Shown here: one piece after another, positions 31,072-56,989 of the stretch
Layout of the letters: each line of letters opens with the position of its first letter
Numbering within the stretch: position 1 is the stretch's first letter
Assembly: GCA_963793865.1 (NCBI GenBank)
Contig: CAWCBP010000001.1
Span: 480,001-544,000 of the forward strand
DNA length: 64,000 nucleotides
Direction: 5' to 3'
Source of the DNA: an uncultured delta proteobacterium
GTDB taxonomy: Bacteria; Desulfobacterota; WTBG01
Position numbers and translations under genes: made by a program
The notes under the pieces: model-generated
Database searches by the model: none
What the model saw: the letters and a program-made list of their open reading frames with translations, nothing else
Told to the model about the DNA's origin: nothing

Positions 31072-31229
31072 GCTGGTTGGACCGCCGGCGTTGGGCGTGC
31101 GCATCCGCGCGCGGGCTGTTTTTTATTGACAATTGCAAGGCGATATAATAATAAAAAATTATTGGCGCAATGTAAACAATTAAACAAAGCACCCGTAGCG
31201 TGCTCCTGAGCGTAAGGAGCGTTTTATTT

Positions 31230-32102
31230 ATGAAAGCATCTTCTTGTGCCCTTCTCTTGTGCTTAAGCGCTGCCCTCTGCGGAAGGGCGATGCCCCTGCA
31301 TGCCGGGCAGAAGCCGCAGCAAAAGATAGCCATTCTTCCCCTGACCACCGGCGGGCAGGAGAATATAGGTTATATTGCCGAAGGCCTGAGGGACATGATA
31401 GCCTCGCGTGTCGCTTCCGGCTCCGGCCTGGCGGTTATTGAGCAGGCCGCGGTACAAGCAAAATATGCCGGTGCCGGCCGGGAAACCCCGTCGCTGGAAA
31501 AGGTGCGGGGGGTGGGAAAGTCGCTCGGGGCTGATTACGTGCTTTTCGGCAGCGCAGCGACGATGGGGAACGACCTGATCATCGCTGTCAACATGCTTGC
31601 CGTCTCGGGTACGGGGCCCCCCGTGCCGGTATTTTCGCAAACCCTGGGGCAGGACGAGGTGATACCCCGTCTGCAGCTCATCGCCCAGGAGGTGAGGGAT
31701 GCGGCGGCTGACGGTCTGATGGACCGGGAAGAAGACAGCCCCCCGCTGTCGCCCGCGGAAGAGCCGAAGGTGTCAGAGGGGGAGGGGAAGGCAGGCCCTG
31801 CGCCAGAGTCGGCGGCAGGCCCCGAACCCCCGATGGAAAGCTCCGATGCGGTCAAACCTGATGAACCGGGGGAAGCAGCCGCCGGCAGTGACCATGAGGG
31901 GGAGGCCGGGCAGGAAGCGGGCAGCGGCGAAGCTGTTGGTGAGAAGGGAGAACGGGAGGGAAGAATAAGGGACCTTCTGTTTAAGAAGAAGGGCGACATT
32001 AAAGCCCCCCCTGAAAACCCGGCTTATGATAAGTCAGTTGATGATCTTCAGGACGCCGCCGAACCGCAACCGAAGACGAATGAACCGTCTGCCGGGGATT
32101 GA
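31230..32102 (+). CDS. Exported protein with TolB-N/CsgG-like domain and acidic low-complexity tail
   Basis: Signal peptide; KIAILPL...GLRDMIASR...LGADYVLFGS; P/E/A-rich C-terminal half. Confidence 0.55.
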   Translation: MKASSCALLLCLSAALCGRAMPLHAGQKPQQKIAILPLTTGGQENIGYIAEGLRDMIASRVASGSGLAVIEQAAVQAKYAGAGRETPSLEKVRGVGKSLGADYVLFGSAATMGNDLIIAVNMLAVSGTGPPVPVFSQTLGQDEVIPRLQLIAQEVRDAAADGLMDREEDSPPLSPAEEPKVSEGEGKAGPAPESAAGPEPPMESSDAVKPDEPGEAAAGSDHEGEAGQEAGSGEAVGEKGEREGRIRDLLFKKKGDIKAPPENPAYDKSVDDLQDAAEPQPKTNEPSAGD

Positions 32103-32156
32103 GCACGTCTGCGGGAGCGGAGAGGCGTGAGGTATCATGGCAATTCGTTGAAATAC

Positions 32157-32233
32157 GGCGGTGTAGCTCAGGTGGTTAGAGCATGCGGCTCATATCCGCA
32201 GTGTCCGGGGTTCAAGTCCCTGCACCGCCACCA
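32157..32233 (+). tRNA. tRNA-Met (CAT), elongator type
   Basis: GGCGGTG/CACCGCC acceptor stem, TAGCTCAG..GG D-arm, TGCGG-CTCATAT-CCGCA anticodon arm, GGTTCAAGTCC T-loop and encoded CCA. Confidence 0.93.
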
Positions 32234-32489: not shown

Positions 32490-32660
32490 GTGATTCGCAT
32501 TGACAGGGAAAAGTGTGTTGGGTGCGGCGGGTGCGTGGATCTCTGCCCCCGGACGGCCATCTGTTTTGTCAAGGACCGCGCATTCGTGGATGTGCAGCTC
32601 TGCCTGGAGTGCCGGACATGCGTGAAAGTCTGCCCGGTGAAGGCGCCGTCAGAGGTGTAG
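32490..32660 (+). CDS. 56-aa 2x[4Fe-4S] ferredoxin (missing from ORF track)
   Basis: Manual translation MIRIDREKCVGCGGCVDLCPRTAICFVKDRAFVDVQLCLECRTCVKVCPVKAPSEV*. AAGGAGA RBS, GTG start. Confidence 0.9.
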   Translation: MIRIDREKCVGCGGCVDLCPRTAICFVKDRAFVDVQLCLECRTCVKVCPVKAPSEV

Positions 32661-33786: not shown

Positions 33787-34536
33787 ATGTCTAAGAGTAC
33801 GAGGATGAAACCAGGCGCAAAGAAGAGCTCACAAAAAAAGGCTTCGTCTCCTGCGACTGCTCAAGCGCCCCAGGCTGCGGCCCCGGGCTCATGGGCGGGC
33901 AGCAGCAAGGCCATGTTTGAGCTCATGATCAAGGAGGTGCCGGAATCGCTGCAGGATGTGTTCCGGGTGAAACTGATGGATATACTCGGGCAGAAGGCGA
34001 AGGGCGGTGCCTACCAGGAAGCCCAGGTTGTGGAGATCGTCAATGAAATCGTGCCCGAGCCGTTCAAGTCCAACATCCTCAAGGGTTTCGCCACCATGGG
34101 GGGTGTTGACATAAGCCTGGTTGAAGGCATCGTGGCTTCATATCCCGGCGGCCAGGAATCCGTCCCCGCCATACTTCACGCCCTGAAGGCCAAGTTCGGC
34201 CATGTGCCGGAAGAGGCGCTGCGGGTGGTGAGCCAGAAGAAAAATGTGTTCATGAGCACCCTCTACCGGCTGGTGACCTCATTCACGGCGTTCCCAACCG
34301 ATTTGCCCAGGAAATACACGGTGAGCGTCTGTGACGGCACGGGGTGCCACCTCAAGGGCAGCGCTTCAATGCTGAAAAAGCTTGAGGAGAAAGCGGCCTC
34401 GCCGGACGCGGACATTAACTTGGAAAAGGTGAGATGCCTGGGCTGCTGCGACCTTTCGCCCGCGGTGCTGGTGAACGGTGAAATGTACAGCGGTGATGAT
34501 GCCCATGCCAAGATTTCAGAAATGTTAGGTGAATGA
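33787..34536 (+). CDS. NuoE/HydC-like [2Fe-2S] subunit with extra N-terminal helical domain
   Basis: VCDGTGCHLKG...CLGCCDLSP thioredoxin-like 2Fe-2S motif. Confidence 0.82.
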   Translation: MSKSTRMKPGAKKSSQKKASSPATAQAPQAAAPGSWAGSSKAMFELMIKEVPESLQDVFRVKLMDILGQKAKGGAYQEAQVVEIVNEIVPEPFKSNILKGFATMGGVDISLVEGIVASYPGGQESVPAILHALKAKFGHVPEEALRVVSQKKNVFMSTLYRLVTSFTAFPTDLPRKYTVSVCDGTGCHLKGSASMLKKLEEKAASPDADINLEKVRCLGCCDLSPAVLVNGEMYSGDDAHAKISEMLGE

Positions 34537-34549
34537 TAAAGGGGAGTCT

Positions 34550-36260
34550 ATGAAACAGGATAAACCGCTTGACCTGAACGCGATACAAAAGAAGGGGCTC
34601 AGCATGCTGGCGCCGGCGCGTGCCCGGATTACCGTCGGCATGGCAACCTGCGGATTGGCCAAGGGCGCGGGGAAGATTTTTGAAGCCCTGAAGTATGAGA
34701 TCAAGAAGCAGAAAGCCAAGGCTGACCTGGTGGTGGTGGGGTGCAACGGCCTTTGCTATGCCGAACCCATTGTTGAAGTGATCTGCCCGGGAAAGCCGCG
34801 CATCACCTATGGCCGGGTGAGCGTGGAACGGGTTCCTGACCTGGTGGCCTCGGTGGCAAAGGGAGGCGTGGTCAAGGATCTGGCCCTGATGAGGATGGAC
34901 CGGTTAACCGCGGAAGGCGGTGCATCGATCAAATATGCCGGGGCGAAGGTCCCCAAGGACGCGGCCGCGCTCAAAGAATGCGGGAAGCTTGATTTTTTCA
35001 AAAAGCAGATGAAGCTCATCAGCAAAAACGCCGGAACGGTCAGCCCGGAGCAGGTTGAGGAATACTGCGCGCTGGGCGGCTACCAGGCGCTGCTGAAAGC
35101 CGTTACCTCCATGAGCCCGGATGAGGTCATCAGGGAAGTAACCGTGTCCAAGCTCCGCGGCCGGGGCGGCGCCGGATTCCCGGCGGGCATTAAGCTGCAG
35201 GCATGCCGTCAGGCGGCCGGGGATGCCAAGTACATTGTCGCCAACGGCAGCGAAGGCGATCCCGAAATCGGCATGCACCGGAGCTTTCTGGAATCGGATC
35301 CCCACGCGGTCATAGAGGGGATGGCCATCGCCGGCTACGCGGTGGGTGCATCGGAAGGCTACATTTATTTGAATGACCGGTACCAGGTGGCCCACGAGCG
35401 GCTCACCCGGGCCATCGAGGGGGCGGAAGCCCTGGGACTTATCGGGAGCAATATAGCGGGTTCGGGATTTTCTTTCTCCCTGCGGGTGAAGCGGGGAGGA
35501 GGCGCGTACGTGTGCGGCGAGGAAACGGCGCTGCTCAACGCGCTGGAAGGCTCGTTCGGCGAGCCGAGACCGCGGCCCCCGTATCCCGCGGAGAGCGGGC
35601 TTTTCAACAAGCCCACCGTGGTCAACAATCTCGAGACCCTGGCAACCATTCCCGCCATTATCGCCGGGGGCGGGGAAGCGGTACGCGGGCATCGGCACGC
35701 CGGGCAGCACCGGCACGAAAATCGTGGCCCTGTCCGGGCATGTGGCCAGGAGCTGCTGGGTGGAGGTCCCGCTGGGCATGGAGATCGGGGAGATCATTGA
35801 AACCTTCGGCGGCGGCGCCGCCAACGGAAAGAAGATAAAAGGTTTCCAGGCGGGAGGCCCGTCAGGCGGCATTCTGCCGGCCAAACTGCTGAAGATCAAG
35901 CTTGACTACGATCGCCTGGCCAAGGAAGGAAGCCTGCTGGGTTCGGGCGGGCTGGTGGTCATGGATGAGGATACTGACCTGCTGGAGATGGCAAAATTTT
36001 TCACCGACTTTTTTGCCGACGAGTCCTGTGGAAAGTGCAGCATCTGCAGGGAAGGCACCAAGCGGCTCCAGCAGATCATCACTGATGTGATGGAAGGGCA
36101 GGGAACAAGCGAGCACATCGCCCTGGTCAAGCGCCTGGCATCAGCACTGTCGGATACCGGCGCCTGCGCCCTGGGCAAAACCGCAGCGGTGCCCTTTATA
36201 TCGGTGCTCAACCATTTCCCGCAGGTGATCGAAGGCAAACTGCTCAGGAAGAAAGCGTAA
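34550..36260 (+). CDS. NuoF/HydB-like FMN/NADH-binding subunit (frameshift near 35680)
   Basis: N-terminal TCG...GCNGLCYAEP, LRGRGGAGFP, AYVCGEETAL, GGPSGG and ESCGKCSICREG...CALG. Confidence 0.88.
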
Positions 36261-36300
36261 GGTCATAAACGGCGTAGCGATACGAGAGAGGATGATATTT

Positions 36301-37239
36301 ATGGTGAGCTTAAAGATAAATGGAAGGAAGATAAAGGCAGCGGAGGGCATGACCATCCTTCAGGCGGCGCGGGTCAATGACATTGAGATACCCACGCTGT
36401 GTTCGAATGACGCGCTCAAGCCCTATGGCGCCTGCCGCCTCTGCGTGGTGGAGATCGGGAAAAACGGGAGGGTGACGGTGGACACATCCTGCACCTACCC
36501 GGTGAGCGACGGGCTGGAGGTGCAAACCAACACCCCCCGCATCAGGGAAGCGCGCAAGATGATTCTCGAGCTCCATCTGGCGCGCTGCCCCAACGTGCAG
36601 ATTGTCCAGGAGCTGGCCGCGGAGTACGGGGTGACCGAAAGCGCCCAGCAGATGGGAAAGGATAATGAGTACTGCATACTCTGCGGGCTGTGCGTCCGCG
36701 CCTGCAACGACGTGGTCAAGGCGGGCGCCATCCAGTTTGCGGGACGCGGCCCGGGCAAGATGGTGGACTCGCCCTTCAGCAAGACCGCGGATGACTGCAT
36801 TGCCTGCGGCTCATGCGCCTTTATCTGTCCCACCGGCATCATCAAGAAAAATGACCTGTTTTCCACCGCGCTCTGCACGCCGGACGGATGCGATCAAACC
36901 GGCCCGCAGCGCGAGATCCTGAACTGGAAGGTGGAGCACAAACTGAAGTGCTGCAAAAAGTGCGGCAATCCCTACGCGCCGGAGCCGCATCTGGAAAAGG
37001 TGAAGCGGGAAAAGAATCTGCCCAATGAATTTTTTGACATCTGCCCCTCGTGCCGGCAGTATCCGGTGGTTGACCCGGACAAGTGCCTGGGCTGCGGCGG
37101 CTGCATGGAGAACTGCCCCTGCGGCGCGCTGGAGCTCGAGGACAAGGGCGGTTATGATAAAAAGGCGCAGCTCTATCCGCAGAACTGCACCGCCTGCCAC
37201 AGCTGCGAGCTCATCTGTCCCATGCAGGCCATCAGCTAG
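36301..37239 (+). CDS. NuoG/HydA-N-terminus-like polyferredoxin without catalytic domain
   Basis: IPTLC...GACRLC...C (2Fe-2S), CILCGLCVRAC, CIACGSCAFICP, CKKC...CPSC and two further CxxCxxCxxxCP motifs. Confidence 0.82.
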   Translation: MVSLKINGRKIKAAEGMTILQAARVNDIEIPTLCSNDALKPYGACRLCVVEIGKNGRVTVDTSCTYPVSDGLEVQTNTPRIREARKMILELHLARCPNVQIVQELAAEYGVTESAQQMGKDNEYCILCGLCVRACNDVVKAGAIQFAGRGPGKMVDSPFSKTADDCIACGSCAFICPTGIIKKNDLFSTALCTPDGCDQTGPQREILNWKVEHKLKCCKKCGNPYAPEPHLEKVKREKNLPNEFFDICPSCRQYPVVDPDKCLGCGGCMENCPCGALELEDKGGYDKKAQLYPQNCTACHSCELICPMQAIS

Positions 37240-37288
37240 AGAGTTGCCCCAATTCTGAATGACTATGTAAGCATCCAAGGAGGAAGTA

Positions 37289-38587
37289 ATGACGGTTTAC
37301 GATCTTGCCATTGTGGGCGCCGGTCCCGGAGGTGTGCATGCTGCCAAGTGGGCGGCCAAGAAGGGGCTCAAGACGATTCTCATTGAGAAGCGCAAAGACA
37401 TCTCCAAAATCACCCGTTACTGCAGCGAGCATTTGATACTCGATGAAGGCTATAACGGGGATACGGTTTTGGTGGATCCTAAAAAAGGCACCATCACCTC
37501 GACGGCGAACGGGTGGGTGGTTGACTATAAAGGCGGTTTGTTCCCCTGCATTGATAAATGGTACTACTCTCCCAAGGGCAGGGCCATCCACTTCGCCTGG
37601 CCTGACCGGCGGCCGTATGCCTACAAGTACGACAAGGGCTTTCTGCTGGGGAGCCTGCTCGAGGAATGCCTGGCGCTGGGGGTCACCTTCCAAAATGAAA
37701 CCAGCGGCTATGACGCGGTCGACAGCGCCCAGGGGGTCGAGATCAAGTGCGTGAGCAGGGGAAAGAAGGAGAAGGTGAAGGCGAAAAAGCTCATCATCGC
37801 CGACGGGTGCAACACCCGCCTGGGGCAGGCAATGGGTTTCAACGCCAGCCGCGGTTACATGGGCTTTGCCCTGTGCATGGCCAGCTACATGTCCGGCGTG
37901 AAGAAATACAACCCTGAAGAATGGGTGCTCTGGTACGGCAGGTGCTACGGCTCAAATCTCGCCCCCATCATCGGCACCGGGCCGGCCGGCCATTTTGAGG
38001 ACTGGGCGGATGTGATCAACCTCGGCAGCCCCCGGGACCTGCCGGTGGAGGCATTTGGCCGGTTCACCAAAAACAGTCCCATAGCCGACCGGTTTGCAAA
38101 CGCCAAGGTTGAAGAGCGGTACTGCTGTTCGGTCAAGGCCTTTACCCCCATTGCCCGTCCCTATAAAAGTAATACTATAATTATAGGAGATTCTGCCGCG
38201 TTTGTTGAAGTGCAGGGTCAGGGGGCTCTGAGCTGCGGTTATAAGGCCGCGGAGGCGGTTGCCAGGGAACTCAAGGGTGAAAAGGGGTTCGAGGAATACG
38301 CCGACTGGTGGCTTAAATCGTTTGAGTTCAATGACAAGGGGATGATGCAGGTGCAGCAGGGATATGCCTTTGTGCCCACCTATACCGATGACGAGCTTGA
38401 CTACCTTTTCGGCCTGTGTGAGGACGTGCTCCTGGACGGGAGCTTCAGCCAGTACAAGTCATCCCGGATGATATGGGACGCAATCCTGCGCGACCCGAAG
38501 AAAATTGAGCGGGAACACCCCGCCACCTATGCAAAAATCAAGAGCGTCCGCAGCAGCACCCTTGAAAGCAGCCTCAAGGACGGCTAA
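37289..38587 (+). CDS. Geranylgeranyl-reductase/FixC-family FAD oxidoreductase
   Basis: GAGPGG, conserved Cys after the IEK motif (TRYCSE), IIADG and IIGDSA. Confidence 0.75.
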   Translation: MTVYDLAIVGAGPGGVHAAKWAAKKGLKTILIEKRKDISKITRYCSEHLILDEGYNGDTVLVDPKKGTITSTANGWVVDYKGGLFPCIDKWYYSPKGRAIHFAWPDRRPYAYKYDKGFLLGSLLEECLALGVTFQNETSGYDAVDSAQGVEIKCVSRGKKEKVKAKKLIIADGCNTRLGQAMGFNASRGYMGFALCMASYMSGVKKYNPEEWVLWYGRCYGSNLAPIIGTGPAGHFEDWADVINLGSPRDLPVEAFGRFTKNSPIADRFANAKVEERYCCSVKAFTPIARPYKSNTIIIGDSAAFVEVQGQGALSCGYKAAEAVARELKGEKGFEEYADWWLKSFEFNDKGMMQVQQGYAFVPTYTDDELDYLFGLCEDVLLDGSFSQYKSSRMIWDAILRDPKKIEREHPATYAKIKSVRSSTLESSLKDG

Positions 38588-38662: not shown

Positions 38663-39844
38663 CTAGAAGCGGTACATCACGGTGGGGGCGATGGCGAAAA
38701 GACCGGAAAAATTTGATCCCATGTCCAGCACCAGCTGAAATGACGGCGACAGTTCGATGTTGGTTCCAATGTGCGTGCTCCACGGTTTCGAGGTCTTCTC
38801 CCGCACCCTGAACTTGACCGTACCCAAAACCGGAACGCGGGGGTCCCCCTTTATGGTGTTGGTGGTATCCCAGTAGGTTTCCCCCAGCCAGAGGTTGAGC
38901 TTACAGTCAGCCGCCTGCGTTCTCCAGCCGAGGCGGACGGAGTTCAGCATCGCCTTCACATCAGGGCTCAGGCTGTTGCCCAGGGGAATATTTCCCTGCA
39001 GCGCGCTGATGGTGTAATTCCAATCGTATGAGGCAAAGAATTTTTTATATCCCCCGACGAGGGTGTAACCCACGCCGTAGGTGACGCCGGTCAGGTCAAT
39101 GTGTATGTCAAGATCCCGGGGGTGTTTGCCAAACCGCTTGCGCAGGCGATCGTAGGGGGCAAGGCCTACTGAAGCATCGGCATCCTCGCGGGTGTACCCG
39201 AACAGCCCATAGACGTTCAAAAAGGGGAACAGCCAGGCGTCAAGGCGCAGCGCCCAGTTCAGCTCCCTGCTCTTCACCTTGATGTCGGTCAGCCCGTCCA
39301 CGGCAATGGCCCGGCCCTTGATGGAAACCTGCGCGTCGCTCACGCTGATGTGCCGCCTGCCGTGATAGAAACTCGGCATTACTCCGAAGGCAAGGGGAAG
39401 GGTATGCCCCTTTGCTTCAGCCTCCTCTCCTAAAATCGGTAAAATCGTTTGCCATTTATGTGACGGGTTTGACCCCCCGGTGCCGGCGTCGTCAGCGGCA
39501 GCATCAGGTGCAGCGGCCTGCCGGTGCGCATCACCGTTCTCCGCGTTCTGTGCAATCATGCTGCTCAGCCGCAGCTGCAACGGGTCTGAAGTTTCTGTTT
39601 CGTCAAAGAGAGGAAGCCGTGAGTGCGGTTTAATAACGCCATTCTCCTGTAATGGCGTATCCTCGATTATTGCTGCATGATTGGACAGCACCGGTTCATT
39701 TTCTGCCGACACGATAAGAGGCCGGATGATAATCATGGATAAAATAAAAATGGCGCACCTGCACAGACTGCACAACGTCTCAAAGCGCGCGCCTGAATGA
39801 GTCCCGGATGTTTTTATCGGAGGGTATGGAAAGCACATTATCAT
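38663..39844 (-). CDS. Probable outer-membrane beta-barrel protein (start uncertain)
   Basis: Signal-like N-terminus, amphipathic strands (LRLDAWLFPFLNVYGLFG) and C-terminal YRF. Confidence 0.6.
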   Translation of the reverse strand: MIMCFPYPPIKTSGTHSGARFETLCSLCRCAIFILSMIIIRPLIVSAENEPVLSNHAAIIEDTPLQENGVIKPHSRLPLFDETETSDPLQLRLSSMIAQNAENGDAHRQAAAPDAAADDAGTGGSNPSHKWQTILPILGEEAEAKGHTLPLAFGVMPSFYHGRRHISVSDAQVSIKGRAIAVDGLTDIKVKSRELNWALRLDAWLFPFLNVYGLFGYTREDADASVGLAPYDRLRKRFGKHPRDLDIHIDLTGVTYGVGYTLVGGYKKFFASYDWNYTISALQGNIPLGNSLSPDVKAMLNSVRLGWRTQAADCKLNLWLGETYWDTTNTIKGDPRVPVLGTVKFRVREKTSKPWSTHIGTNIELSPSFQLVLDMGSNFSGLFAIAPTVMYRF

Positions 39845-40150
39845 ATCTATGGTCTGTTGCTATAATCAAACAGAAAGAAGAATTCGATTTACGGAAAGTT
39901 GTATTTATCGGTTGACAGAGGCTCAGGCGGATGATAGTTAATTTCGAACCATAGCGCAGCCCTTATGAATAAAGAAAGCGGATGTAAGATATGGTAGCAG
40001 AATCCGAATGGGCAGTCAAATTTTTATGGAACTATTGTAGTGAATGCCGTTGCATTTGAGGGGCCGGCCCCGGTCCGTTGCGTAACGGCAGCGTGAGGAA
40101 ATGAAGGCGAGGCCGGACAGGAATACCCACCGTGCGAGAGGAGTTTGGTT

Positions 40151-40918
40151 ATGGCAAAGGTAGCATGGAATGAGATGACTGCGTTCGCAAAAGTTATTGT
40201 GGAGGATTACAAGCTGTTTGAAGGACTGGAGCTGGTGCCGCTTGAGACCTACCAGGGCATGGACACCAGGCCGGCCTGGGAGTTTAAAACCCCCATGGCC
40301 ACCGGCTTCTACAAGCCGTACCTCATCAAGGGAAGCGACCGGATCGAGAAGATCACCATCGGGGAGCTGCATTACATGGGACGGGCCAAGTACTGCGCCC
40401 TGAACATGACCGCGAGCAACGATTACGACCTGCCCATCTATGCCTGCGAGTTTGACGAGACGGCGCCGCGGGTGGGCGTGACCATGGATTTAATGCCCAC
40501 GGTGGACATCGCCCGGCACGAGGAGTACCTGCAAAAATACTACCGGGAGATAGCGCCGCTGTGGCGGAAGTACCGAACCATACCCGGATTTACCCTTGAA
40601 GGCCGCTGTCTGGTGCAGAGAAGGTACGCGCCCTGGCCCTGGGCGCGCGAGTCGCTCTCTCCCTTCAGCCTTGACGGGCGGGTGGAGGAGAAGGAGGACC
40701 GGGTGAAGCTGATGGAGGCGGTGGTGGCCTATGCCCGGGTGTGGCTTAACCTGCTGAAGAAGGCGGAGCCCATCCGGGATGAGGGGTACCGGCAGGAGAT
40801 GCTGCGCAGAAAAAGCAAAACCCAGAAATATTACCGCGATCTTGACCCGGGCGGAGAGGTGATGAAAAAGATTTTCGGCGCGGAAAAAAGCCACCTCTTC
40901 GTGAGCCTTGTCTTTTAA
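40151..40918 (+). CDS. Ferredoxin-dependent bilin reductase / RCCR-like protein, copy A
   Basis: YDLPIYACEF, DLMPTVDIARHEEYLQKYY, RESLSP, YARVWL and YYRDLDPGGEVMKKIFG...VF follow the recalled FDBR/RCCR motif order. Confidence 0.68.
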   Translation: MAKVAWNEMTAFAKVIVEDYKLFEGLELVPLETYQGMDTRPAWEFKTPMATGFYKPYLIKGSDRIEKITIGELHYMGRAKYCALNMTASNDYDLPIYACEFDETAPRVGVTMDLMPTVDIARHEEYLQKYYREIAPLWRKYRTIPGFTLEGRCLVQRRYAPWPWARESLSPFSLDGRVEEKEDRVKLMEAVVAYARVWLNLLKKAEPIRDEGYRQEMLRRKSKTQKYYRDLDPGGEVMKKIFGAEKSHLFVSLVF

Positions 40919-40931
40919 AGGAGGTAGAGAA

Positions 40932-41660
40932 ATGGATGCAGGCGTAAAATGGACACCCTATCTGGAAAAAATGAAGGGATTGATTGATTCGCTGCAGCCC
41001 ACCGCGCTTCAGGAGTGGAAGGGGCAGAATCTTGCGCCCGCCCTGGAGTTTGCCAGGGGCCAAGCGCGGGGAGGGTTCAGCGCATACCGCGCTGACAAGC
41101 TGGAAAAAATAGGCATCGGCTCATTTGTCCATGCCGGCAACAGGCACTTTGCCTTCTGCAGCATCATGCCCGGGGAAGCCTATGACCTGCCCCTGTTTCT
41201 CTCGCGTCTCGATGAGGGGCCGGAGGAGGTCATTTTCCTGGTTGATATCATCCCCGCGGTGGACAGCCTGGTGGATGAGGAATACCGCAAGAAGTATATC
41301 GAGTCGGTGCAGCCCCTCTGGGACCGGTTTGCCGCCCTGCCCGGCATCTGTCCCGAGGAAAGCGATGTCATCCGCTCACTCGCCTCCATCATTTACACCG
41401 CGGCCCGGGTTCCCATCGAGAAGGAGGGGATGCGCCTGGCGGCCCTTGCCCCGCACACTGAATATCTCAAGAGCTACCTCGCGTTTCTTCCCGAGGCGGT
41501 GCCGGTTACCGATGAGGCGAAGAAAAAGGAGCTGGCGGCAAAACGCGCGGCGCTGCGCGCAACCCTGCGTGCCCATTTTTTCAAGGAAATGCTGCCGGGT
41601 CCGGCACGGGAAGAACTGGGTGATGGCATGATCGAACTGCTTAATGCTGTCTATTTTTAG
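40932..41660 (+). CDS. FDBR/RCCR-like protein, copy B (degenerate)
   Basis: Paralogous to copy A (EKIGIG, YDLPLF, DIIPAVD..DEEYRKKY) but lacks both acidic catalytic positions. Confidence 0.62.
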   Translation: MDAGVKWTPYLEKMKGLIDSLQPTALQEWKGQNLAPALEFARGQARGGFSAYRADKLEKIGIGSFVHAGNRHFAFCSIMPGEAYDLPLFLSRLDEGPEEVIFLVDIIPAVDSLVDEEYRKKYIESVQPLWDRFAALPGICPEESDVIRSLASIIYTAARVPIEKEGMRLAALAPHTEYLKSYLAFLPEAVPVTDEAKKKELAAKRAALRATLRAHFFKEMLPGPAREELGDGMIELLNAVYF

Positions 41661-41673
41661 GGAGGGATGAGAC

Positions 41674-42084
41674 ATGTCGGTTATGGAAATGCTTGCGGCA
41701 GGAGCCGATTTTACCAACGCGGATGAAACGGCGCAGGGGATGATGGCTGATTTCAGCGACCACAAGGTGGGCATGAAGCTTGACGCGGACGAGTTCACCC
41801 AGGTGGTAAAAGACGGCAAGCTCTATCTGGAGCAGGGGATCCGCGAGGACTGCCACGTGGTGCTGAAGCTGAAAACGGCCGATCTCTGCAGCGCCATCGA
41901 CAACACCTTCGATCTCATGGAAATCAAGGACAAGGGGGAGCTGTTGAAGGGCGATATGACCGATCCCAACGTTCCCGTCCACCTCATGGCCACCTTTCCC
42001 TTTTTCGATGCCATGGTCCGGCTGTATGAATCCGATCCCCGCTTTAAAAAAATGGTTGATGAGGTTAAGTCTACTTTGGGATGA
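41674..42084 (+). CDS. SCP2-like lipid/sterol-binding protein
   Basis: 136 aa, acidic. The VKDGKL..EQG...CHVVLKLK.ADL...ID pattern resembles the SCP2 fold. Confidence 0.45.
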   Translation: MSVMEMLAAGADFTNADETAQGMMADFSDHKVGMKLDADEFTQVVKDGKLYLEQGIREDCHVVLKLKTADLCSAIDNTFDLMEIKDKGELLKGDMTDPNVPVHLMATFPFFDAMVRLYESDPRFKKMVDEVKSTLG

Positions 42085-42096
42085 GGTGCCCTGCAT

Positions 42097-42303
42097 ATGG
42101 TGAAACATCTGGTCGATCTGGAAAAGTGCCGCGGCTGCGGGCAGTGCCTTGAGCAGTGCGGACTGGAACTGTGGGTTCTGGTGGAAACACCGGACGGAAA
42201 GAAAAAAGCCAAGGCAATCGAAGAGGCGGGCATGATCTGCCACTGCTGTCTTTCCTGCCAGGACGCCTGCCCGGAAAAAGCGATCACCATTCTTGACGAG
42301 TAA
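42097..42303 (+). CDS. Ferredoxin
   Basis: CRGCGQCLEQC and CHCCLSCQDACP. Confidence 0.85.
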   Translation: MVKHLVDLEKCRGCGQCLEQCGLELWVLVETPDGKKKAKAIEEAGMICHCCLSCQDACPEKAITILDE

Positions 42304-42380: not shown

Positions 42381-43729
42381 ATGCCCAGGGAATATGATCT
42401 GGTGGTGGTCGGCGCGGGGCCTGCCGGTTTGATGGCCGCCAAAACAGCAGCCGAACACGGGCTGAGCGTGGCCCTGATCGAGCGGAAAGAGCACATTACT
42501 GATATCAACCGTGCCTGCAGCATGATGGTGGTGACCCTGACCGGGAAATATCTGGAGGAGCGGGTACGCTTAAACAGCCGGGACAGGAAGCTTTGCTTCC
42601 CGGGATACGGTTTTACCGTCAACTATGACGGCCCCCACCGTGACTTTTACACCTGGGCCATATACTCCCACCGGGGCAACAAAATTCAGCTCGGCAACTA
42701 TGAAGAGAACGAGCGCAAGGGCGAGAGCGGCAGGGTGAGCGCGACGTACGATAAGGGGGCGCTGCTGCGCTGCCTCCTGGAGGAGGCCCGCGCCCTGAAG
42801 GTTGATGTCTACAACCCGTATAATGTAATCCGGACCGATCTGCAGGGAGGCAGGGTGACGGTTTTCACCCGCGAGGGAAGATCCTTCAGGGGCACCTTCG
42901 TCATCGCCGCCGACGGTCGCGCCTCCAGAATAGCCCACACCCTGGGCTGCAACCGGGATCGGAAGTATTTCGGCACTGCGGTGACCCTGGGGTATGAAAT
43001 GGTGGGGGTAAAGCCGCCGGAAAAATTTGCCCTCTTCCAGATATTTCTCGACGAGACACCTTCCAAGCGGGTGTGGATGACGCCGCGGACGACGAAGGAC
43101 ACCTACTTCGTCATGACCACCTCGCTCACCCCCGGCGCAGACCTCGCGGGCGCCTTTGAGCGGTTTTCGAAAAAGGGTTTTTTCGCGCTCCTGGTTCGAA
43201 AAGGCAGAGATAAAGCGCACCCTGACTTCCGCGGGCAACGCGCTCTCACACATAGTCGATCCCTACAAGGACCAGGTGCTGCTTGTCTCCGACGCGGTGT
43301 GGTGCCAGGAGGCGGAGATGACCGGGGCGGTCATCAGCGGCTGGAAGGCGGCCAGCTGCCGTCAGCTTCGCCCTGGCCGATGGAAAGATATCGCGGGAAG
43401 GGGTTTCATCCTACCTCCGCTGGTGGAAAGAAGAGGTGCTGGATAAATACGATTACCGGAGCATGATGCGCAATGCCGTGCTTCCCCTCCGGCTCACCCC
43501 TGACGAGATTGACTTCGTGCTGAGCCTGGTTAAAAAATCACTGCCCAGCATCCTTGATCCTTATGAGACCCCCAAGCTGGTCGGCGGCGCCCTGGCGGAG
43601 ATAATGCCGGCCGTTGCCAAACAGCGGCCCGCCATTCATCAGAAGCTTGCAGGGATGCGCAATGTGCCGCTGGCCGCCGTTTTTGACGGATGCATCAGGG
43701 CGGGCTTCCCCATGCAGGCCCGCGGCTAG
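42381..43729 (+). CDS. Second geranylgeranyl-reductase-family FAD oxidoreductase (frameshifts near 43188 and 43357)
   Basis: GAGPAG, NRACS, IAADG and LLVSDA, spread over three frames; paralog of 37289. Confidence 0.72.
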
Positions 43730-50113: not shown

Positions 50114-51239
50114 ATGATTAACAATTATAAATTTTTTGTTATACTAGTCGTCTGCGCTTTGTTACCTTCAACACTCGGCTGCAAGCAGAAGAAGTCAACC
50201 TTTAAGGTTCCTCACATACCTTCCATTATCGGGGAAAATCTTACCAAGGTGGTCGCGTTTGATGAAGACAACATCCTCATAGCCGGTGACTACAGCTATC
50301 TGGCCACTACCGGCCAGGGCAGCCAGATCAGGTATGAAAACAGCAAAAAGGACTTCTGGACGGTTCAGAACACCGGCCTGTCGGGAGAGCTTATCTGCGA
50401 TATCAGTTTCCCCGACCGGCAGAACGGCTGGGCGGTGGGCATTCTGGGCAACGTCATACACACCTCGGACGGGGGTAAGACCTGGGAGCGGCAGGCAAGC
50501 GGCACCAAAAGGCATCTGTTTACCGTCCACTTTCCCGACAGCAACAACGGCTGGGCGGCGGGCGATGTGATGACCGTCATCCATACCGCTGACGGCGGAA
50601 AGACCTGGGAGCCCCAAACCGTGCAGCAGAGCACCGATGAGAATGTCTTTGCGGCGGAGGTAATTTACAACGGGGTATTCTTTCATGATGCCAATGAAGG
50701 GTGGCTGGTCGGGGAGTTCGGTTCCATCTATCACACCATGGATGGCGGCAAGAACTGGGAAAACCGTCCCTGTGAGGCTTTGGCGCCAAAGATGGCTGAG
50801 GATGAATGGGAGCTGCCGAAGCTGACCCTCTTTGACATCCGTTTTGCCGACAGGCAGCGGGGCTTCATTTTAGGTGTTGACGGGACCCTGCTTAAAACAG
50901 ACGATGGCGGCAAGGAGTGGAAAAAAATTGACAGCGCCTCCACCAACTCCCTCTTTTCCATCGCCATGGTAGGAGACAAGTGCTGGGCGGTGGGTGACCG
51001 GGGGGCCTACATCATGTCCGGCGACGGCGGAAACACCTGGACCAAGCAATGATGACGCCATTCACACCAAGGGCTGGCTTACGTCGGTTGCGTTTGTGAA
51101 TGAAACCGTGGGCTGGGTGGTTGGGAAGTCAGGAGCGGTCTTTAAAACCATTGACGGGGGCAAGACATTTGAATGGCTCTCGGGTGTCTCCTATGACTGG
51201 CCGGAATTTAAACCGCCCAAGGAGCTGGTTGGCGAGTAG
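50114..51239 (+). CDS. YCF48/BNR-repeat lipoprotein (frameshift near 51048)
   Basis: Lipobox LGC; repeated GWAVG...HTxDGGKTW motifs. Confidence 0.85.
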
Positions 51240-51300
51240 TTACTGTACCGTTACCGGTTAGGGTATTGTTGCCTGATTATTATTTAATAAGGGGAAGCTC

Positions 51301-53674
51301 ATGAAAAAGTTTGCTGATTTTGTAATTGAGAGAAGGGGACTGGTGCTCATCATTATGGGGCTGATAACGCTTTTCTTTGCATTCAATATGGTCAATTTGA
51401 AGGTGTATACCAAATTTGCCGACCTGTTGCCGCAGGGGCACGAGTATATAAAAACCTACAACGGGATCCGGGCCAAGTTCGGCGGCGCCAACACCGTGAC
51501 CATGATCTTCCAGGTGCGCAAGGGGGACATCTTCAATCCCGCCACCCTGAAAAAGATCCGGGAGATAACCGATGAGCTGTATTACCTCCCTGCGGTGGAC
51601 CGGTTTAAAATTACTTCGCTGGCGGTGAATACGGTGGTGGATATGAAACTCATCTCCGGCGGGTACGATTTTGTTCCCCTGATGTTTCCCAACGTGCCCA
51701 AAACCCAGGTGGAAGCGGACGAGTTGAAGGAGAAGGTATATGCCAGCGTTTTTTACGGCGGCCTGGTCTGGTTTGACAACAAAAAGACCCTGATCACCGC
51801 CGATTTCTTCGATGACGAGATTGACTACTCGGTGGTCTTCAAGGAGCTGATCAGGATTCAGAAGAAATACGAGGATGATAATCATATCCTGAGCATGGCC
51901 GGGGAGCCGCTGCACCTGGGATACATTAACAGCTACGTGGGCACCATCATGACCATCATGGGCATGACCCTGGTGGTGATGCTGGCGCTGTTTCTCTTCT
52001 ACTTCCGCTCGTTCCGGGGCATGGTGCTGCCGGTGTTGATGGCCATAATCAGCGGCATCTGGGGCATCGGGTTTCTGGTGCTGCTGGGCTACAGCCTGGA
52101 CCCGCTGGTGATGGTCTTTCCTTTCCTGGTTGCGGCCATGGCCGCCTGCCACTCGGTGCAGGTGATCAAGCGCTATATTGAAGAGTGCGGCATCACCAAG
52201 GATGTGAAGGCCTCGTGCAAGAAGGTGATCGAGGAGCTTTTCGTCCCGGGCTTTGTGAGCATCATCACCGACGCGACCGGGATCATGCTCATCGCGCTCA
52301 CCCCCATCAAGATCATGCAGATGATCACCATTGTCTGCACCTTCTGGTCCATCGTGACGGTTCTGATCGTCATGTGCCTTTTGCCGGCGATGCTTTCCTA
52401 TTTATCATTTCCCCATAAGTCAATTGCCCGGGCTGAAAAGAAGAGCAACCTTGACTTCGGGCTGATGCGCCTGGGGGCGTGGATTGCCCGGTGGGGCTGC
52501 TGGCCGATTCTGGCGGTCTTTTTGCTGCCTGTTTATCTTCGGCGCCTATTATGCCCGGACCATCCAGGTGGGAGACGCGGTACCCGGCTCCTCGCTGCTC
52601 TGGCCCTGGCACCGCTTCAACCGTGACGGATTCCGCATCTCCTTCGCCATGCCCATCTTAAGCCCGCTGCTGGTGGTGATGGAGGGTGAAAAATATCGCG
52701 ACCTGGTGAGCTGTCCGGGTAAACCCTACATGATGTGCGGGGACAACTTCAAGGAGATGGAACGCTTCGAGCGCTACATGAAGGAGACGCCGGGGAGGCT
52801 GGTGATGTTCACCCGCTCGGTGATCAGCACCTTTTCCGGGGCGGGCTGGCTGGCCCACGAGGGCGATCCCAACTGGTACTTCTTCCCGACCAATGACCGG
52901 GAGACCATCTACAGCTTCCGCAGGGTTACCGAGATGGGCACGCCCGGCACCGCCGACCGGTTCTGCGATCCCGGCGAGGACACGGCGGCCAACATCATCA
53001 TTTACTGCCGGGACAAGATGACCCCCACCATCAAGACGGTGATGGGCAGGATTAAGGAGTACATGGAGACGCGTTCCCAGCTGGCGCCTCCCATGCACTA
53101 CAAGCTCTGCGGAGGCGAGTTCGGGGTGCAGGCGGCCATCAATGAGATTATCGAGGAATACCAGTACACCACCGGAACCTGGGCGCTCATCCTCATTTTC
53201 GCCTTCTGCTGCATCTTTTACAAGAGCTTCATGGCCGGTATTATCCTCATTCTGCCGCTCATCGTGTCCAATTCCATTGCCTTCGCCATGATGGCCACCG
53301 GCTTTTTCTGGGCGATACCCACCCCGATCACCATTACCACCAGCACCCTGCCGGTCACCGCGGTGGGGATCGGGCTGGGGGTTGACTTCGGGGTGTACCT
53401 GTTGAGCCGGATCAAGGATGAGTACGGGCTGGTCCATGACCTGAGCAAGGCCATCGAGAACGCCATGCTCACCACCGGCAAGGCGGTGGTGTATTTGTCG
53501 ACCACCCTTACCGTGGGCATTTTCTTCTGGGTGATTTCGCCTTTGATGTTCCAGGCCATGATGGGGCTGTTTCTGGCCATCGTGCTGTTCCTGAACATGG
53601 TCGGGGCGCTGCTGCTGGTACCCAGCTTCGTGGTGTTGTTGAAGCCGAAGTTCATCACCGGGCAGGCAAAGTAA
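51301..53674 (+). CDS. MMPL/RND-family transporter (frameshift near 52528)
   Basis: Two repeats of periplasmic domain plus TM bundle; FGGAN, GIGLGVDFGVY and TTGKAV. Confidence 0.85.
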
Positions 53675-53926
53675 TTGTTCAGCAAATGTACCGAAGTTAA
53701 TCGTGATCTTGATATCCATTGCTGAGGTCGCCGATGCTTATTAGTAAAGGGGCGGGAATAAGATTGATCCATTGATTCCTTGCATCACTATGTTCTCAAA
53801 CGGTGATTGCAGCTTGAGCGCTTTAATTTTTTAATCATTTATTGACAAGAATTGGTAATGCTGGTAAAAAAGTCACAATGCTTAAAATAATTATATAAAC
53901 CTTTCTCAATGGACAAGGGGGGTATC

Positions 53927-55612
53927 ATGCATAAACGATTGTGGGGTATTCTCTTCATATCCTTCCTGGCAGTGCTCTTTGTTAACCCTTCGGCATCGCT
54001 TGCCCGCTTTTACCTCCTTGACAAAAAAATAGAGATTAACGGCGTCATCGAGGAAAAGTGGAATTTCAAGTATGGCATGAAGGAGTGGGAGAAGGGAAGG
54101 GCATCAGATGTTTACGGCAATAAGAAATGGGCGTCAGACGGCGGTAAGGTGGAAAACCCGGCCATGATGAAAACCCATCTGCATCTTGAGGCCCTTTACC
54201 ACGCCTATCAGCAGGGGAATACGGTGCTTGATTTTTATACCCTGTTTGAATGGTTCTATGACGTAGCCCCTGATATCAATGGTTCCTGGGGCCGCGGTAT
54301 GTCTTCCTATGACCGCAACAAGTATCAGACCCCGCACGGATGGGAAATGATCCGGGAACTGTACCTGAATTACGTCAGCGGTCCCTGGACGCTCCGCCTT
54401 GGTAAGCAAATGGTGGTCTGGGGCGAGACGGGCCTGCAGCGGACGGCGGATGTGGTTAACCCGCTGGATACCAAGTCTCACATGATGGGGGTGGATGACT
54501 GGGAGGATTTCAAGAAGGGGCTCTGGATGTTCCGGGGCTTTTACCAGACGAGTTTCAAAAACGACCTTACCCTGGAGACGATCTTTGTTCCCTATGATGT
54601 GCAGGCCATGGACCTTCCCCCGGAAGGCACGATGTATAACACCACCTATACCGGTGGGTTTACGTCGAGAATGTGGCGGCGGTGGAAGCATGATGAAGTC
54701 AATGAGCGCGGCCTGCACGATGCACAGGGGGGCTTCCGGATCAGGGGATTTAACAAGGACTGGGACTGGACCGTTCTCTGGTACAACGGCTATGAAGCAA
54801 CCCCGGTATGCGTTGACTGGGGACAGCGGGCTGATTCCTACCTGCCGAAAACTGCTTTCGGCTGGCAGAATGTTGCGCTGGGAATCGGGGGGTTCAATCT
54901 CTTTGCGGCGGAATACAACTACACTAAGGCTACAACCGGCGTCAGCCTTGCCTATCCCAAAAACAGGATGTTCAGGTACTATCGGGGCAATAATATAGGC
55001 GCCACTGCTACAAGATACATCTACACCTTGCCCGTTTTCGGCCTGTTTGAAATACCCCTGAAATCAAACGTCCGGTTTGAAGCAGCTTATAAGCCTGGCA
55101 CCCATTTCAACCGGATGGAAGTAGTAGGAGCAAGTACCTGGCTGGTGAAAAATGTCACCCGCAGGGATCTCATCGGCTATGCCATGGAAATCGGTCATGA
55201 TTTCATGCCCCGGTTTATATGCAAGTATAACGGTGAACGGAGCGTTGATGTGACCTTTGGAATGTTTCAGGACTGGATATTGAACCATGACCGCAATCTC
55301 AACGTGTCAGGGTATAACCGGGGAGCTGGTGATGTCAGCACCACCTCCTTCAGCCTTGATGCCACCACGGACTGGATGAATCAGGAACTCATGACCAAGT
55401 TTAACTATTCATATAACACCAGCGGATACGGGTCTTTCTGGGCATTTTTTCAGTACGCGCCCGGCCAGCACTGGAGATTTACCCTGCTGCCCCGGATAAC
55501 CTGGTCCAATTCCGGACCCTTTAACAACAAGGCAGATCTTAGACACCAAGCCCAAACGAACAGTAATGATACACTCAATTATATCCACTTTAAAATCGGC
55601 TATCTGTTCTAA
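53927..55612 (+). CDS. DUF1302-like outer-membrane protein
   Basis: Signal peptide; IRELY...LRLGKQMVVWGE...DVVNPLD; C-terminal KIGYLF. Confidence 0.78.
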   Translation: MHKRLWGILFISFLAVLFVNPSASLARFYLLDKKIEINGVIEEKWNFKYGMKEWEKGRASDVYGNKKWASDGGKVENPAMMKTHLHLEALYHAYQQGNTVLDFYTLFEWFYDVAPDINGSWGRGMSSYDRNKYQTPHGWEMIRELYLNYVSGPWTLRLGKQMVVWGETGLQRTADVVNPLDTKSHMMGVDDWEDFKKGLWMFRGFYQTSFKNDLTLETIFVPYDVQAMDLPPEGTMYNTTYTGGFTSRMWRRWKHDEVNERGLHDAQGGFRIRGFNKDWDWTVLWYNGYEATPVCVDWGQRADSYLPKTAFGWQNVALGIGGFNLFAAEYNYTKATTGVSLAYPKNRMFRYYRGNNIGATATRYIYTLPVFGLFEIPLKSNVRFEAAYKPGTHFNRMEVVGASTWLVKNVTRRDLIGYAMEIGHDFMPRFICKYNGERSVDVTFGMFQDWILNHDRNLNVSGYNRGAGDVSTTSFSLDATTDWMNQELMTKFNYSYNTSGYGSFWAFFQYAPGQHWRFTLLPRITWSNSGPFNNKADLRHQAQTNSNDTLNYIHFKIGYLF

Positions 55613-55647
55613 TAACCGGCAGCATTGAGGGAAGGGAGGAAAGGAAT

Positions 55648-56989
55648 ATGAAGGAAAGCAGGAAATGGTGTAGTGTTGTAATGGTAATAATTATGGCGCT
55701 CGTTTTCACCGGCGCGATTGCGAGCCGGGGTGCTGCTGTGACCACCGAGGAACAGCTGAAAAATTGGCCGGCGGCCTGTTATCAGGGCGCGGACCTGGAA
55801 AAGGTGCGCGAGTGGGAAAAGACCTGGGTGGGGAAGAGGATCAACAAGGATAACATCGACCAGGTGAAGGAATTTTTATCAGACCAGTTTTACGAAATGT
55901 TTAAGAACCCTGCCGATTGGGGTGCCGATGATATATGGTTTGAAATTGTCCCCTACAAGCAGATTCTTCCCACCCCGGGACAGGAAGCCATGACCAGAAA
56001 GTATGCGCCGACGGCCACGCTGGACCCCAATCCCCGCAAGGCGTTCTGGGATGGTGGGGTTGGCCCAAATGAGTTTCTGGTGGGCTGGGAAACGGGTGCG
56101 TCAGCCGGCTTTCCCTTCCCCTTCCCCCAGTCGGGAGTGGAAATGGCATGGAACCTTGAATCAATCACCAATGGTGATTCCAAGTCGTACAGCAGGGATG
56201 GCGTGGTGGTGAATCCCCGCACCAGGACGGAGCGGCGCGCCGTTCAGCCGTACATCCATGATTTTTATACCGGCCGGTGTGATTATGAACCGCTTCTCAA
56301 AAAACCCGACAACCCCAAGGGGATACGCCGGGCCATGTATCTGTACATAGACGAGCCTCTGGATGTGAGAGGGACCAGGTACATGGAATTGCGCTACCTC
56401 GACCTTACCAAACCCGATGATGTGTGGGTGTGGTTCCCGCTCTTCCGCAGGATACGGCGCATGGGCTTTGCCTACAAATCAGATACCATTGACGGCACTG
56501 ATCTTGGTCCCGATGACGAGGGCGGTTGGAACGGTCATATTAACAGAAAGAACTGGAACATTGTCGGGCGGAAAGAGATGATGCTGGGCCGGCATACCAG
56601 ACACGAAAAAATACACCAAGGTAACCGGACAGGCCCTCTGGAGCGGCATGCAGCTGGAGCGAACAAACGCTTACGTCCTGGAGTCGAAATTCAAGGAGAA
56701 AGACGCGGTATACAGCAAGGAAATTATGTATATGGATCCCGAGTCCTGGCATTGTCTGCAGAAGGTCACCTGGGACCGGCAGGGGAGAGTATGGAGGCAT
56801 TTCCTGTTCCACACCATGATTTATAACGATCCCAAGAAAAACATTGACCATGTGCATACCTTTGAATTGTATTCCAGCGACCTGCAGCGCAGGCACGGAT
56901 GCCCTTCCCTGGATCTGGTCAAGGAGATCGGCATTGACATAAAGAATGACTTCTGGACCATTCAGAACCTGCAGAAGATGGGGTACTAA
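55648..56989 (+). CDS. DUF1329-like periplasmic protein (frameshift near 56600)
   Basis: GFPFPFPQSGVEMAWN, P.DVRG, W.WFP..RRIRR and Y.D.ESW motifs. Confidence 0.8.

Follow-up and report, generated by a model that had tools for sequence, protein, structure and literature searches.

A tandem gene pair with the bilin-reductase fold, and the heterodimeric reductase that it may encode, in an uncultured Desulfobacterota bacterium

Introduction

A stretch of 64,000 nucleotides (hereafter the window) from an uncultured delta proteobacterium of the Desulfobacterota (assembly GCA_963793865.1, contig CAWCBP010000001.1, positions 480,001 to 544,000) contains two adjacent paralogous genes, hereafter A and B, whose products according to structural models both share the alpha/beta/alpha sandwich fold of ferredoxin-dependent bilin reductases (FDBRs) and of red chlorophyll catabolite reductase (RCCR). 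The A-B pair would work like an FDBR or RCCR, yet it belongs to no named family. Taken as a whole, our tentative reading is that A and B form a heterodimeric reductase that takes part in the anaerobic processing of scavenged pigments derived from chlorophyll or haem. No earlier description of the pair, or of the expansion of FDBR-like genes in its lineage, was found in the open-access PMC and bioRxiv texts that were searched.

Results

Identity and fold of A and B

The two genes are the following.

40151-40918, forward strand: gene A, ATG to TAA, 255 amino acids; FDBR fold, likely the catalytic subunit, with E100 and D232 at the positions of PebB Asp99 and Asp219
40932-41660, forward strand: gene B, ATG to TAG, 242 amino acids; FDBR fold, likely a non-catalytic partner

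A and B lie 13 bp apart and are paralogs, as indicated by 27% identity over 195 amino acids (E 8e-24) and by a profile-profile alignment of 234 columns (probability 99.9); coordinates and spacing agree with the first-pass annotation, which had described adjacent paralogs at this distance. The isoelectric point (pI) is 8.5 for A and 5.4 for B. A contains the motifs YDLPIYACEF (with E100), RDLDPG..KIFG (with D232) and DLMPTVDIARHEEYLQKYY; B contains LFLSRL (with R92) and a lid loop without DP. Pfam Fe_bilin_red (PF05996) matched A with 52.3 bits, over its cut-off of 31 (E 7.7e-14), whereas B stayed under it with 23.7 bits (E 4.4e-5). RCC_reductase (PF06405) scored 20.9 bits for A, under its cut-off of 24.9 (E 2.3e-4), and gave no match for B at E≤0.1; HemF (PF01218) matched neither protein. 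Of the three families proposed for checking, only Fe_bilin_red was matched over its cut-off, and by A alone. Both proteins fell far under the cut-offs of the NCBIfam PebA and PebB models (27-34 bits versus 263-327).

AlphaFold2 models of A and B (pLDDT 90.8 and 94.8) were compared with solved structures. A superposed best on GtPebB (6QX6; Z 25.1, rmsd 2.2, 226 residues), followed by HY2 (Z 24.1), PcyA (22.7), PebA (21.7), RCCR (21.3) and HemF (at most 17.4). B likewise matched GtPebB best (Z 24.4, rmsd 2.3, 226 residues), with Z 23.6, 22.6, 21.8 and 21.8 for HY2, PcyA, PebA and RCCR; unlike this ranking, Foldseek placed RCCR first for B. All solved relatives at Z>5 were FDBR, RCCR, HemF or a chloroplast motor subunit with the same fold, and the first unrelated structure scored Z 4.9 for A and 4.3 for B. 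The assignment to the FDBR/RCCR fold made from the sequence is therefore upheld, the best structural match of each protein lying within it. FDBRs are closer than HemF (Z 24-25 for PebB versus 14-18), and RCCR is no nearer to A than PebB and HY2 are (Z at most 21.3 versus 25.1). Sequence identity of A and B to solved FDBRs is 12-19%.

In a quick tree (94 rows, LG+G4, SH-aLRT support only, built without RCCR, PcyA or pre-PcyA rows and with two fragments of one broken paralog omitted), A and B were sisters with weak support (81), within a clade (90) that also held five other paralogs of the same genome and a protein of Ca. Schekmanbacteria. PebA, PebB and HY2-like rows grouped apart from this clade (92). 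Among the best distant matches of the A profile was a protein whose 90% cluster holds OGL44139.1 (E 1.2e-38).

In the metatranscriptome X16, contigs matched parts of A (about 85% alike, from relatives), B and the X-ferredoxin segment described below; these contigs show neither strand nor transcription and were not counted.

Active-site residues

E100 was found in all 90 A-type sequences and D232 in all 78 A orthologs proper. The other 12, which carry Ser at the second position, have further changes in common and nest within A as a derived subfamily, here A'. The two acids had been proposed to be the catalytic pair of the family; their counterparts in RCCR are presumably Glu154 and Asp291, numbers for which sequence searches gave no RCCR chain and the literature search no paper. 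E100 and D232 align with two GtPebB aspartates 120 residues apart, a pair that matches the essential acids Asp-99 and Asp-219 of PebB (PMC6755814). The proposal thus held for PebB and failed for HY2, which in vascular plants has Asn at the first position (PMC6755814). At position 228, A-type sequences carry Tyr (83 of 90) or Phe (7), where PebB/HY2-like rows carry Arg; Arg-215 is essential in PebB and HY2 and is a feature of A-ring reducers (PMC6755814). The PcyA triad Glu76-His88-Asp105 corresponds by sequence register to G71, A83 and E100 of A and is thus incomplete. With Tyr228 in place of Arg-215, and G71 and A83 in place of Glu76 and His88, A belongs to none of the PebB, HY2 and PcyA families. 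By analogy with PebB, A is likely a ferredoxin-dependent reductase.

B has no acid at either catalytic position, bulkier residues on the pocket strands and a variable lid. Across 120 homologs the first position is occupied by R (82), Q (16), L (5), K (4), Y (4) and others, and by an acid in a single case; in the lid loop DP is absent in register, occurring further along in three homologs. By the same register, A83 is replaced by F or L in 111 of the 120, A98 by L, I, F, V or M, T111 by L, M or F, and E100 by R or Q. The lid is the least conserved region of B (0.58 and 0.44, versus 0.78 over the corresponding segment of A), and several orthologs have a shorter one. R92 and the missing DP had both been noticed beforehand and are present; what is conserved is the absence of the acid, Arg being merely common, and a conserved functional role for this Arg was ruled out by its presence in only 82 of 120 homologs. 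The contrast that had been drawn between a catalytic and a degenerate copy is supported by these counts. Degeneration of B into a pseudogene was ruled out: its open reading frame (ORF) is intact, and dN/dS of about 0.13-0.26 (six comparisons, two with identical values), far below 1, indicates purifying selection. Conservation reaches 0.82-0.93 in the core of B (residues 101-180), and E95, R119, R148 and Y178 are invariant. B probably lacks canonical activity.

A conserved four-gene module

Gene order was surveyed in 61 genomes (the host and 60 relatives). Matches of the A profile numbered 32, spread over 25 genomes, and 31 of these loci were examined. B directly follows A in 25 of them; of the other six, three run into the end of their contig within 57 bases, and three are A'. 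Conversely, 24 of 25 matches of the B profile lie beside A, the remaining one being a contig-split fragment. Two further genes follow the pair.

41674-42084, forward strand: protein X, 136 amino acids, conserved, with weak likeness to SCP2 (hydrophobic-ligand carrier)
42097-42303, forward strand: ferredoxin, 68 amino acids, acidic (pI 5.1), 2x[4Fe-4S] type; candidate electron donor

Of the 25 A-B loci, 24 have X after B and 20 have the ferredoxin after X, the misses falling at contig or locus ends. The ferredoxin belongs to the module, since it remains with A-B-X even where the gene for a geranylgeranyl-reductase-like (GGR-like) protein sits on the other side; the first-pass annotation had correctly noted a ferredoxin two genes downstream of B. 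Seven of 19 X homologs resembled SCP2 at E≤1, the best of them at 5.5e-4; a profile search of X against PDB gave no match, and the Atlas yielded clusters without names and, in 12% of members, a single lead to SCP2. A' loci differ in arrangement: A' is followed by an MFS transporter gene and, in two genomes (L076 and L079), preceded by a pair of HemF-like genes.

A predicted A-B heterodimer

Complex formation was predicted with ESMFold2 from A and B with both alignments, in three runs and with three controls. A+B reached an ipSAE of 0.89, versus 0.00 for the best control; 116 of 157 solved complexes attain the mark used, against 2 of 215 mismatched pairs. The runs had at least 84% of contacts in common, with partner pLDDT of at least 91. 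The predicted interface comprises residues 119-135, 150-172 and 219-227 of A and 107-134, 139-153 and 203-211 of B. In B, interface positions are more conserved than the rest (0.78 versus 0.67, p=0.011). On the basis of these models A and B are likely to form a heterodimer. The earlier claim had been a heterodimeric ferredoxin-dependent reductase with one inactive or binding subunit: the predicted complex speaks for its first part, but B may retain activity and A may act as a homodimer.

Expansion of the fold in the genome and its lineage

The genome (3.85 Mb, 98.6% complete) gave 14 Pfam matches for the fold, and an iterated profile raised this to 24 ORFs representing 23 genes, about 17 FDBR-like and 6 HemF-like, one of the latter confirmed by Pfam. 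Such expansion (6-22 matches) was found in 31 of 41 genomes of the same class and in none of 19 genomes of other classes; by family, it occurred in 31 of 32 genomes of four families and in none of 9 genomes of two others, counts in which kin genomes are not independent. Haem oxygenase (PF01126) was found in none of the 61 genomes, and the PHY domain not in the host genome, where globins were not searched for. Ordinary chromophore synthesis by haem oxygenase, FDBR and phytochrome was thereby ruled out, and ordinary biliverdin reduction for a chromophore is unlikely, given that the pair is one module among about 23 genes of the FDBR/HemF fold in a genome with no haem oxygenase. Phototrophy was also ruled out: reaction-centre families PF00124 and PF00223 and the CobN/BchH chelatase family PF02514 are absent from this genome, which agrees with the non-phototrophic host supposed earlier. 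Sulfate reduction was ruled out by the lack of a dsrA match in the genome. Ring opening of the ChuW/HutW type exceeded the cut-off in two of the 61 genomes, both outside the class. The staygreen dechelatase was unmatched and its control was silent too, so that this search was uninformative.

The genome also contains two nitrogenase-like (DPOR-like) reductase sets with B subunits nearest to BchB/BchZ, a BchE-like B12 radical SAM enzyme beside two FDBR paralogs, two genes of the FrhB/BciB family, comA, a crtB-family gene and, 4.3 kb from an FDBR paralog, a BchF-like gene. The available text of PMC4783071 describes the BchF family as exclusive to makers of bacteriochlorophyll a. BchB-like proteins occur in 21 and BchF-like proteins in 10 of the 32 genomes of the four FDBR-rich families, and in none of the 28 other genomes. 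The genome further holds import systems and many genes for aldehyde:ferredoxin oxidoreductases (AORs), GGR-like proteins and FAD oxidases, as counted without control genomes and with frameshift fragments included.

Several other loci of the fold were noted. In a relative (G018), a BchN/BchB-like pair and a BchE-like enzyme share one contiguous run (L073, C8) with two FDBR paralogs, three ferredoxins and an X homolog; the same grouping is present in the host genome (L019, C14:240000-252000). In the latter, which belongs to an apparent anaerobe, two AORs, a ferredoxin and a GGR-like flavoprotein are interspersed at C1:437215-445678 (L011) with two FDBR-like genes and one HemF-like gene (PF01218, E 6.5e-29). 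A tandem HemF-like pair lies at C8:197417-198959 (L022); in genomes G008 and G003 it is followed by subfamily A' and an MFS transporter. An FDBR-like paralog at C1:67141-68142 (L010) has a fused N-terminal 2x[4Fe-4S] ferredoxin domain, a fusion that directly supports coupling to this type of ferredoxin. The BchF-like hydratase gene (L020, C2:18721-19128) lies between an FDBR paralog and an AOR, the latter accompanied by an exported protein resembling ferrochelatase (PF00762, E 5e-6). At C11:151023-151832 (L016), an FDBR paralog with an N-terminal hydrophobic anchor lies beside an exported flavodoxin and a YCF48/MMPL/DUF1302/DUF1329 set, near a corrinoid/MtaA/RACo cassette (L015). At C14:218197-220155 (L018), an old-yellow-enzyme flavoprotein comes right after an FDBR paralog, and its ortholog precedes A in genome G016; its best NCBIfam match is the long form of bilirubin reductase (382 bits versus a cut-off of 750), with BaiCD almost equal.

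Other features of the window

The remaining features around the module are these.

33787-38587, forward strand: upstream accessory genes, a NuoE/F/G-like module for electron transfer by flavin and Fe-S and another GGR-like flavoprotein
39838-39866, forward strand: the best sigma-70-like site 5' of A (10/12); a consensus match only
42381-43729, forward strand: GGR-like FAD protein; two ORFs here, one 448-amino-acid ORF in a same-genus genome
44040-49060, forward strand: three FAD-linked oxidases of the VAO/PCMH/GlcD superfamily; accessory
50114-56826, forward strand: accessory genes, predicted to import a hydrophobic compound: YCF48-like, MMPL/RND (broken in this window), DUF1302-like and DUF1329

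Upstream of A, five sigma-70-like sites were found versus 2.1 expected in shuffled sequences. The GGR-like gene is a frequent neighbour of the module, often divergent, and the NuoE/F/G-like module is a possible source of reduced ferredoxin. Genes are split at 34529-36260, 42381-43729, 50114-51239 and 51301-53700; a same-genus genome has two of them as single ORFs, and for MMPL there is an unbroken paralog of 791 amino acids; the splits are probably long-read indel errors. Divergent from A, a predicted outer-membrane beta-barrel gene (38663-39844, reverse strand) is retained solely in same-genus genomes. A tRNA-like sequence was noticed in the ORF list at about 32150-32230, between the ORF 31200-32102 and a ferredoxin at 32490. 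Sequencing runs containing 0.39-0.64 of the words of the window came from freshwater, sediment, wetland and soil, in 10 studies.

Discussion

Proposed mechanism and the evidence against it

In the proposed mechanism, A and B would pair into one pseudo-symmetric heterodimer in which A binds a tetrapyrrole-type substrate. By analogy with PebB, E100 would protonate the bound pigment, the ferredoxin of the module would supply single electrons through radical intermediates, and D232 would position a proton-donating water, as Asp-219 does in PebB. B, its pocket filled, might stabilize A, shape substrate entry into A or hold the substrate, and the SCP2-like protein X could carry a hydrophobic substrate. 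The step would form part of an oxygen-free processing of scavenged chlorophyll- or haem-type pigments. The substrate is likely to be of the tetrapyrrole type, and a scavenging or catabolic direction is favoured with modest confidence; the substrate, and whether pigments are degraded or built, are the least certain parts.

A number of observations weigh against this proposal. The predicted interface has pseudo-two-fold symmetry, 18 of the 24 alignable A positions also lying at the interface in B; the A side shows no enrichment in conservation (0.75 versus 0.75 elsewhere), A' retains 19 of 29 interface majority residues although no B adjoins it, close cousins also pass the complex test, and RCCR is presumably a homodimer. 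The result for A+B may therefore reflect likeness; a duplicated homodimer whose second copy has lost its pocket fits the interface, conservation and A' data. The assignment of pocket-facing residues follows sequence register and not coordinates, and B retains acids nearby (E/D94 in 111 and E95 in all of the 120 homologs). Moreover, loss of the equivalent acid need not abolish activity, Pre-2 D91N being active according to the available text of PMC13446030. As to the pathway, no ring-opening enzyme was found, HutW exceeding its cut-off in no genome of the class, and the substrate may accordingly be cyclic, or else a bilin or phyllobilin whose ring was open before import. The Bch-like proteins of the host genome, including the BchF-like and BchB-like ones, all fall under the curated TIGR cut-offs. 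The BchH/CobN-family chelatases of relatives suit biosynthesis, and the SCP2-like, GGR-like, VAO-family and MMPL neighbours equally suit lipids or aromatics.

Alternative explanations

The same A-B enzyme might serve biosynthesis, the lineage tailoring a metallo-tetrapyrrole pigment or cofactor of its own with BchH-, BchE-, DPOR/COR-, BchF- and FDBR-like enzymes. Chelatases of the BchH/CobN family do occur in 20 of the 32 genomes of FDBR-rich families, six of eight tested pass the BchH cut-off (TIGR02025) and most adjoin I/D-type ATPases; characterized FDBRs, RCCR excepted, are all biosynthetic; and Murphy et al., in the accessible part of bioRxiv 10.1101/2021.03.22.436540, interpret a similar set in 'Anaeropigmentia' as a near-complete bacteriochlorophyll pathway. 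These chelatases need not feed the pathway, however, since they lie near NikR, CbiM or FeoB-like genes (L108-L115, in relatives that are non-phototrophs), are also found in 5 of the 19 genomes from other classes, which lack FDBR genes, and are absent from the host genome, which at 98.6% completeness nevertheless holds the full FDBR family; a member of the chelatase superfamily acts as a haem dechelatase, as far as the available text of PMC12583661 goes. In addition, a set of 23 paralogs, accompanied by import systems and many genes for AORs, GGR-like proteins and FAD oxidases, is easier to reconcile with many substrates than with a single product. We regard biosynthesis as unlikely. The substrate might instead lie outside the tetrapyrroles, the fold having been repurposed for anaerobic degradation of a sterol, isoprenoid or aromatic lipid. 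The immediate neighbours would suit this, SCP2-like, GGR-like, VAO/PCMH-family and MMPL/DUF1329 proteins being known from steroid and aromatic degraders, as would the low identity to solved FDBRs and the lack of a haem oxygenase. The restriction of solved relatives at Z>5 to the fold itself, the retention of the PebB acid pair in A, the co-occurrence of the family with BchB- and BchF-like genes and the gene run shared with BchE-like and BchN/B-like genes all stand against it, making it the least probable of the alternatives.

A and B might also work one after the other as independent enzymes or binders, in the manner of PebA and PebB, with A a monomer or homodimer and the site of B changed, for instance towards a cyclic tetrapyrrole or with E94/E95 as its acid. 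The well-conserved core of B with its invariant residues is in line with this, as are the symmetric interface and the existence of A' apart from B; and Pre-3 variants without the active-site acid co-purified protoporphyrin IX and haem, according to the part of PMC13446030 that is available. Yet the conserved residues of B overlap the predicted interface, bulky residues occupy its pocket positions, its lid varies and in several orthologs is shorter, B was never found away from A, and, acidic as it is, it would be a poor docking match for an acidic ferredoxin. Separate enzymes thus appear improbable, and we retain the heterodimer acting on scavenged pigments as the preferred reading.

Significance

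If this reading is true, conservation of a heterodimer where haem oxygenase is lacking and each genome has some 20 members of the fold would challenge the descriptions of FDBRs as monomers and as dependent on O2. In the available text of Rockwell et al. 2023 (PMC10151467), the known enzymes of the fold are all ultimately O2-dependent and the family is dated after oxygenic photosynthesis; an oxygen-free pathway would break the rule that the fold works only downstream of O2-dependent enzymes. It would also offer an explanation for the bacteriochlorophyll-type genes of 'Anaeropigmentia', which have no reaction centre and are left unexplained in the accessible part of bioRxiv 10.1101/2021.03.22.436540. 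Named and expressible enzymes would become available for the turnover of chlorophyll and haem in anoxic sediments, and the module of four genes (A, B, X and ferredoxin) is small enough for reconstitution. To our knowledge, which microbes and enzymes transform these pigments in such sediments is an open question. That A-B is the first FDBR composed of an enzyme and a pseudo-enzyme, a core step in an undescribed oxygen-free pathway, and that a whole class of Desulfobacterota from sediments and wetlands lives on dead chlorophyll and haem, is a bolder and rather doubtful extension.

Comparison with known systems

PebB and HY2 (GtPEBB, 6QX6 and 6QWQ; tomato HY2, 6KME), the best structural matches of both A (Z 25.1/24.1) and B (Z 24.4/23.6), have the YDLP, D-x-x-P and DP motifs in common with A, whose D232 is the equivalent of Asp219. 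They differ in that A is 18-19% identical to them, carries Glu instead of Asp at the first position and has Tyr228 for their Arg-215, and in that the host genome has no haem oxygenase, phytochrome or reaction centre. FDBRs are monomers as described in the available text of PMC13446030, in contrast to the heterodimer predicted here.

RCCR (PF06405; 2ZXL, 3AGA) has the same fold, with Z up to 21.3 for A and 21.8 for B, and its substrate is a ring-opened chlorophyll catabolite. RCCR presumably also has a Glu/Asp pair and is a dimer. Plant RCCR requires the upstream, O2-dependent PAO, according to the part of PMC10151467 that is available, and it shares with PebB an Arg (PMC6755814) that A lacks. 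The FDBR-like protein of Ca. Schekmanbacteria groups with A and B in one clade (support 90). In the available text of Rockwell et al. 2023 (PMC10151467), Schekmanbacteria sequences are an outgroup on the RCCR side, given with no function, pair or expansion; the row in our tree may differ from the sequence used there. The pre-PcyA proteins Pre-1 to Pre-3, as far as the available texts of PMC10151467 and PMC13446030 describe them, are active FDBRs from heterotrophic non-phototrophs; Pre-1 has Glu and Ser at the two catalytic positions, as does A', and Pre-1 and Pre-3 adjoin haem oxygenase and bilin-binding globins, whereas the A-B lineage has no haem oxygenase.

Finally, 'Ca. Anaeropigmentia' is a Desulfobacterota class with bchE, bciB, chlLNB, bchXYZ, bchF, chlP, crtB and CoM genes and no reaction centre, according to the accessible part of bioRxiv 10.1101/2021.03.22.436540. 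Murphy et al. propose there a lost photosynthetic ancestry and not scavenging, and the word 'bilin' occurs 0 times in the main text. Look-alikes of these orphan bacteriochlorophyll genes are carried by the host genome, which, from gene content and record titles, we infer to belong to this class.

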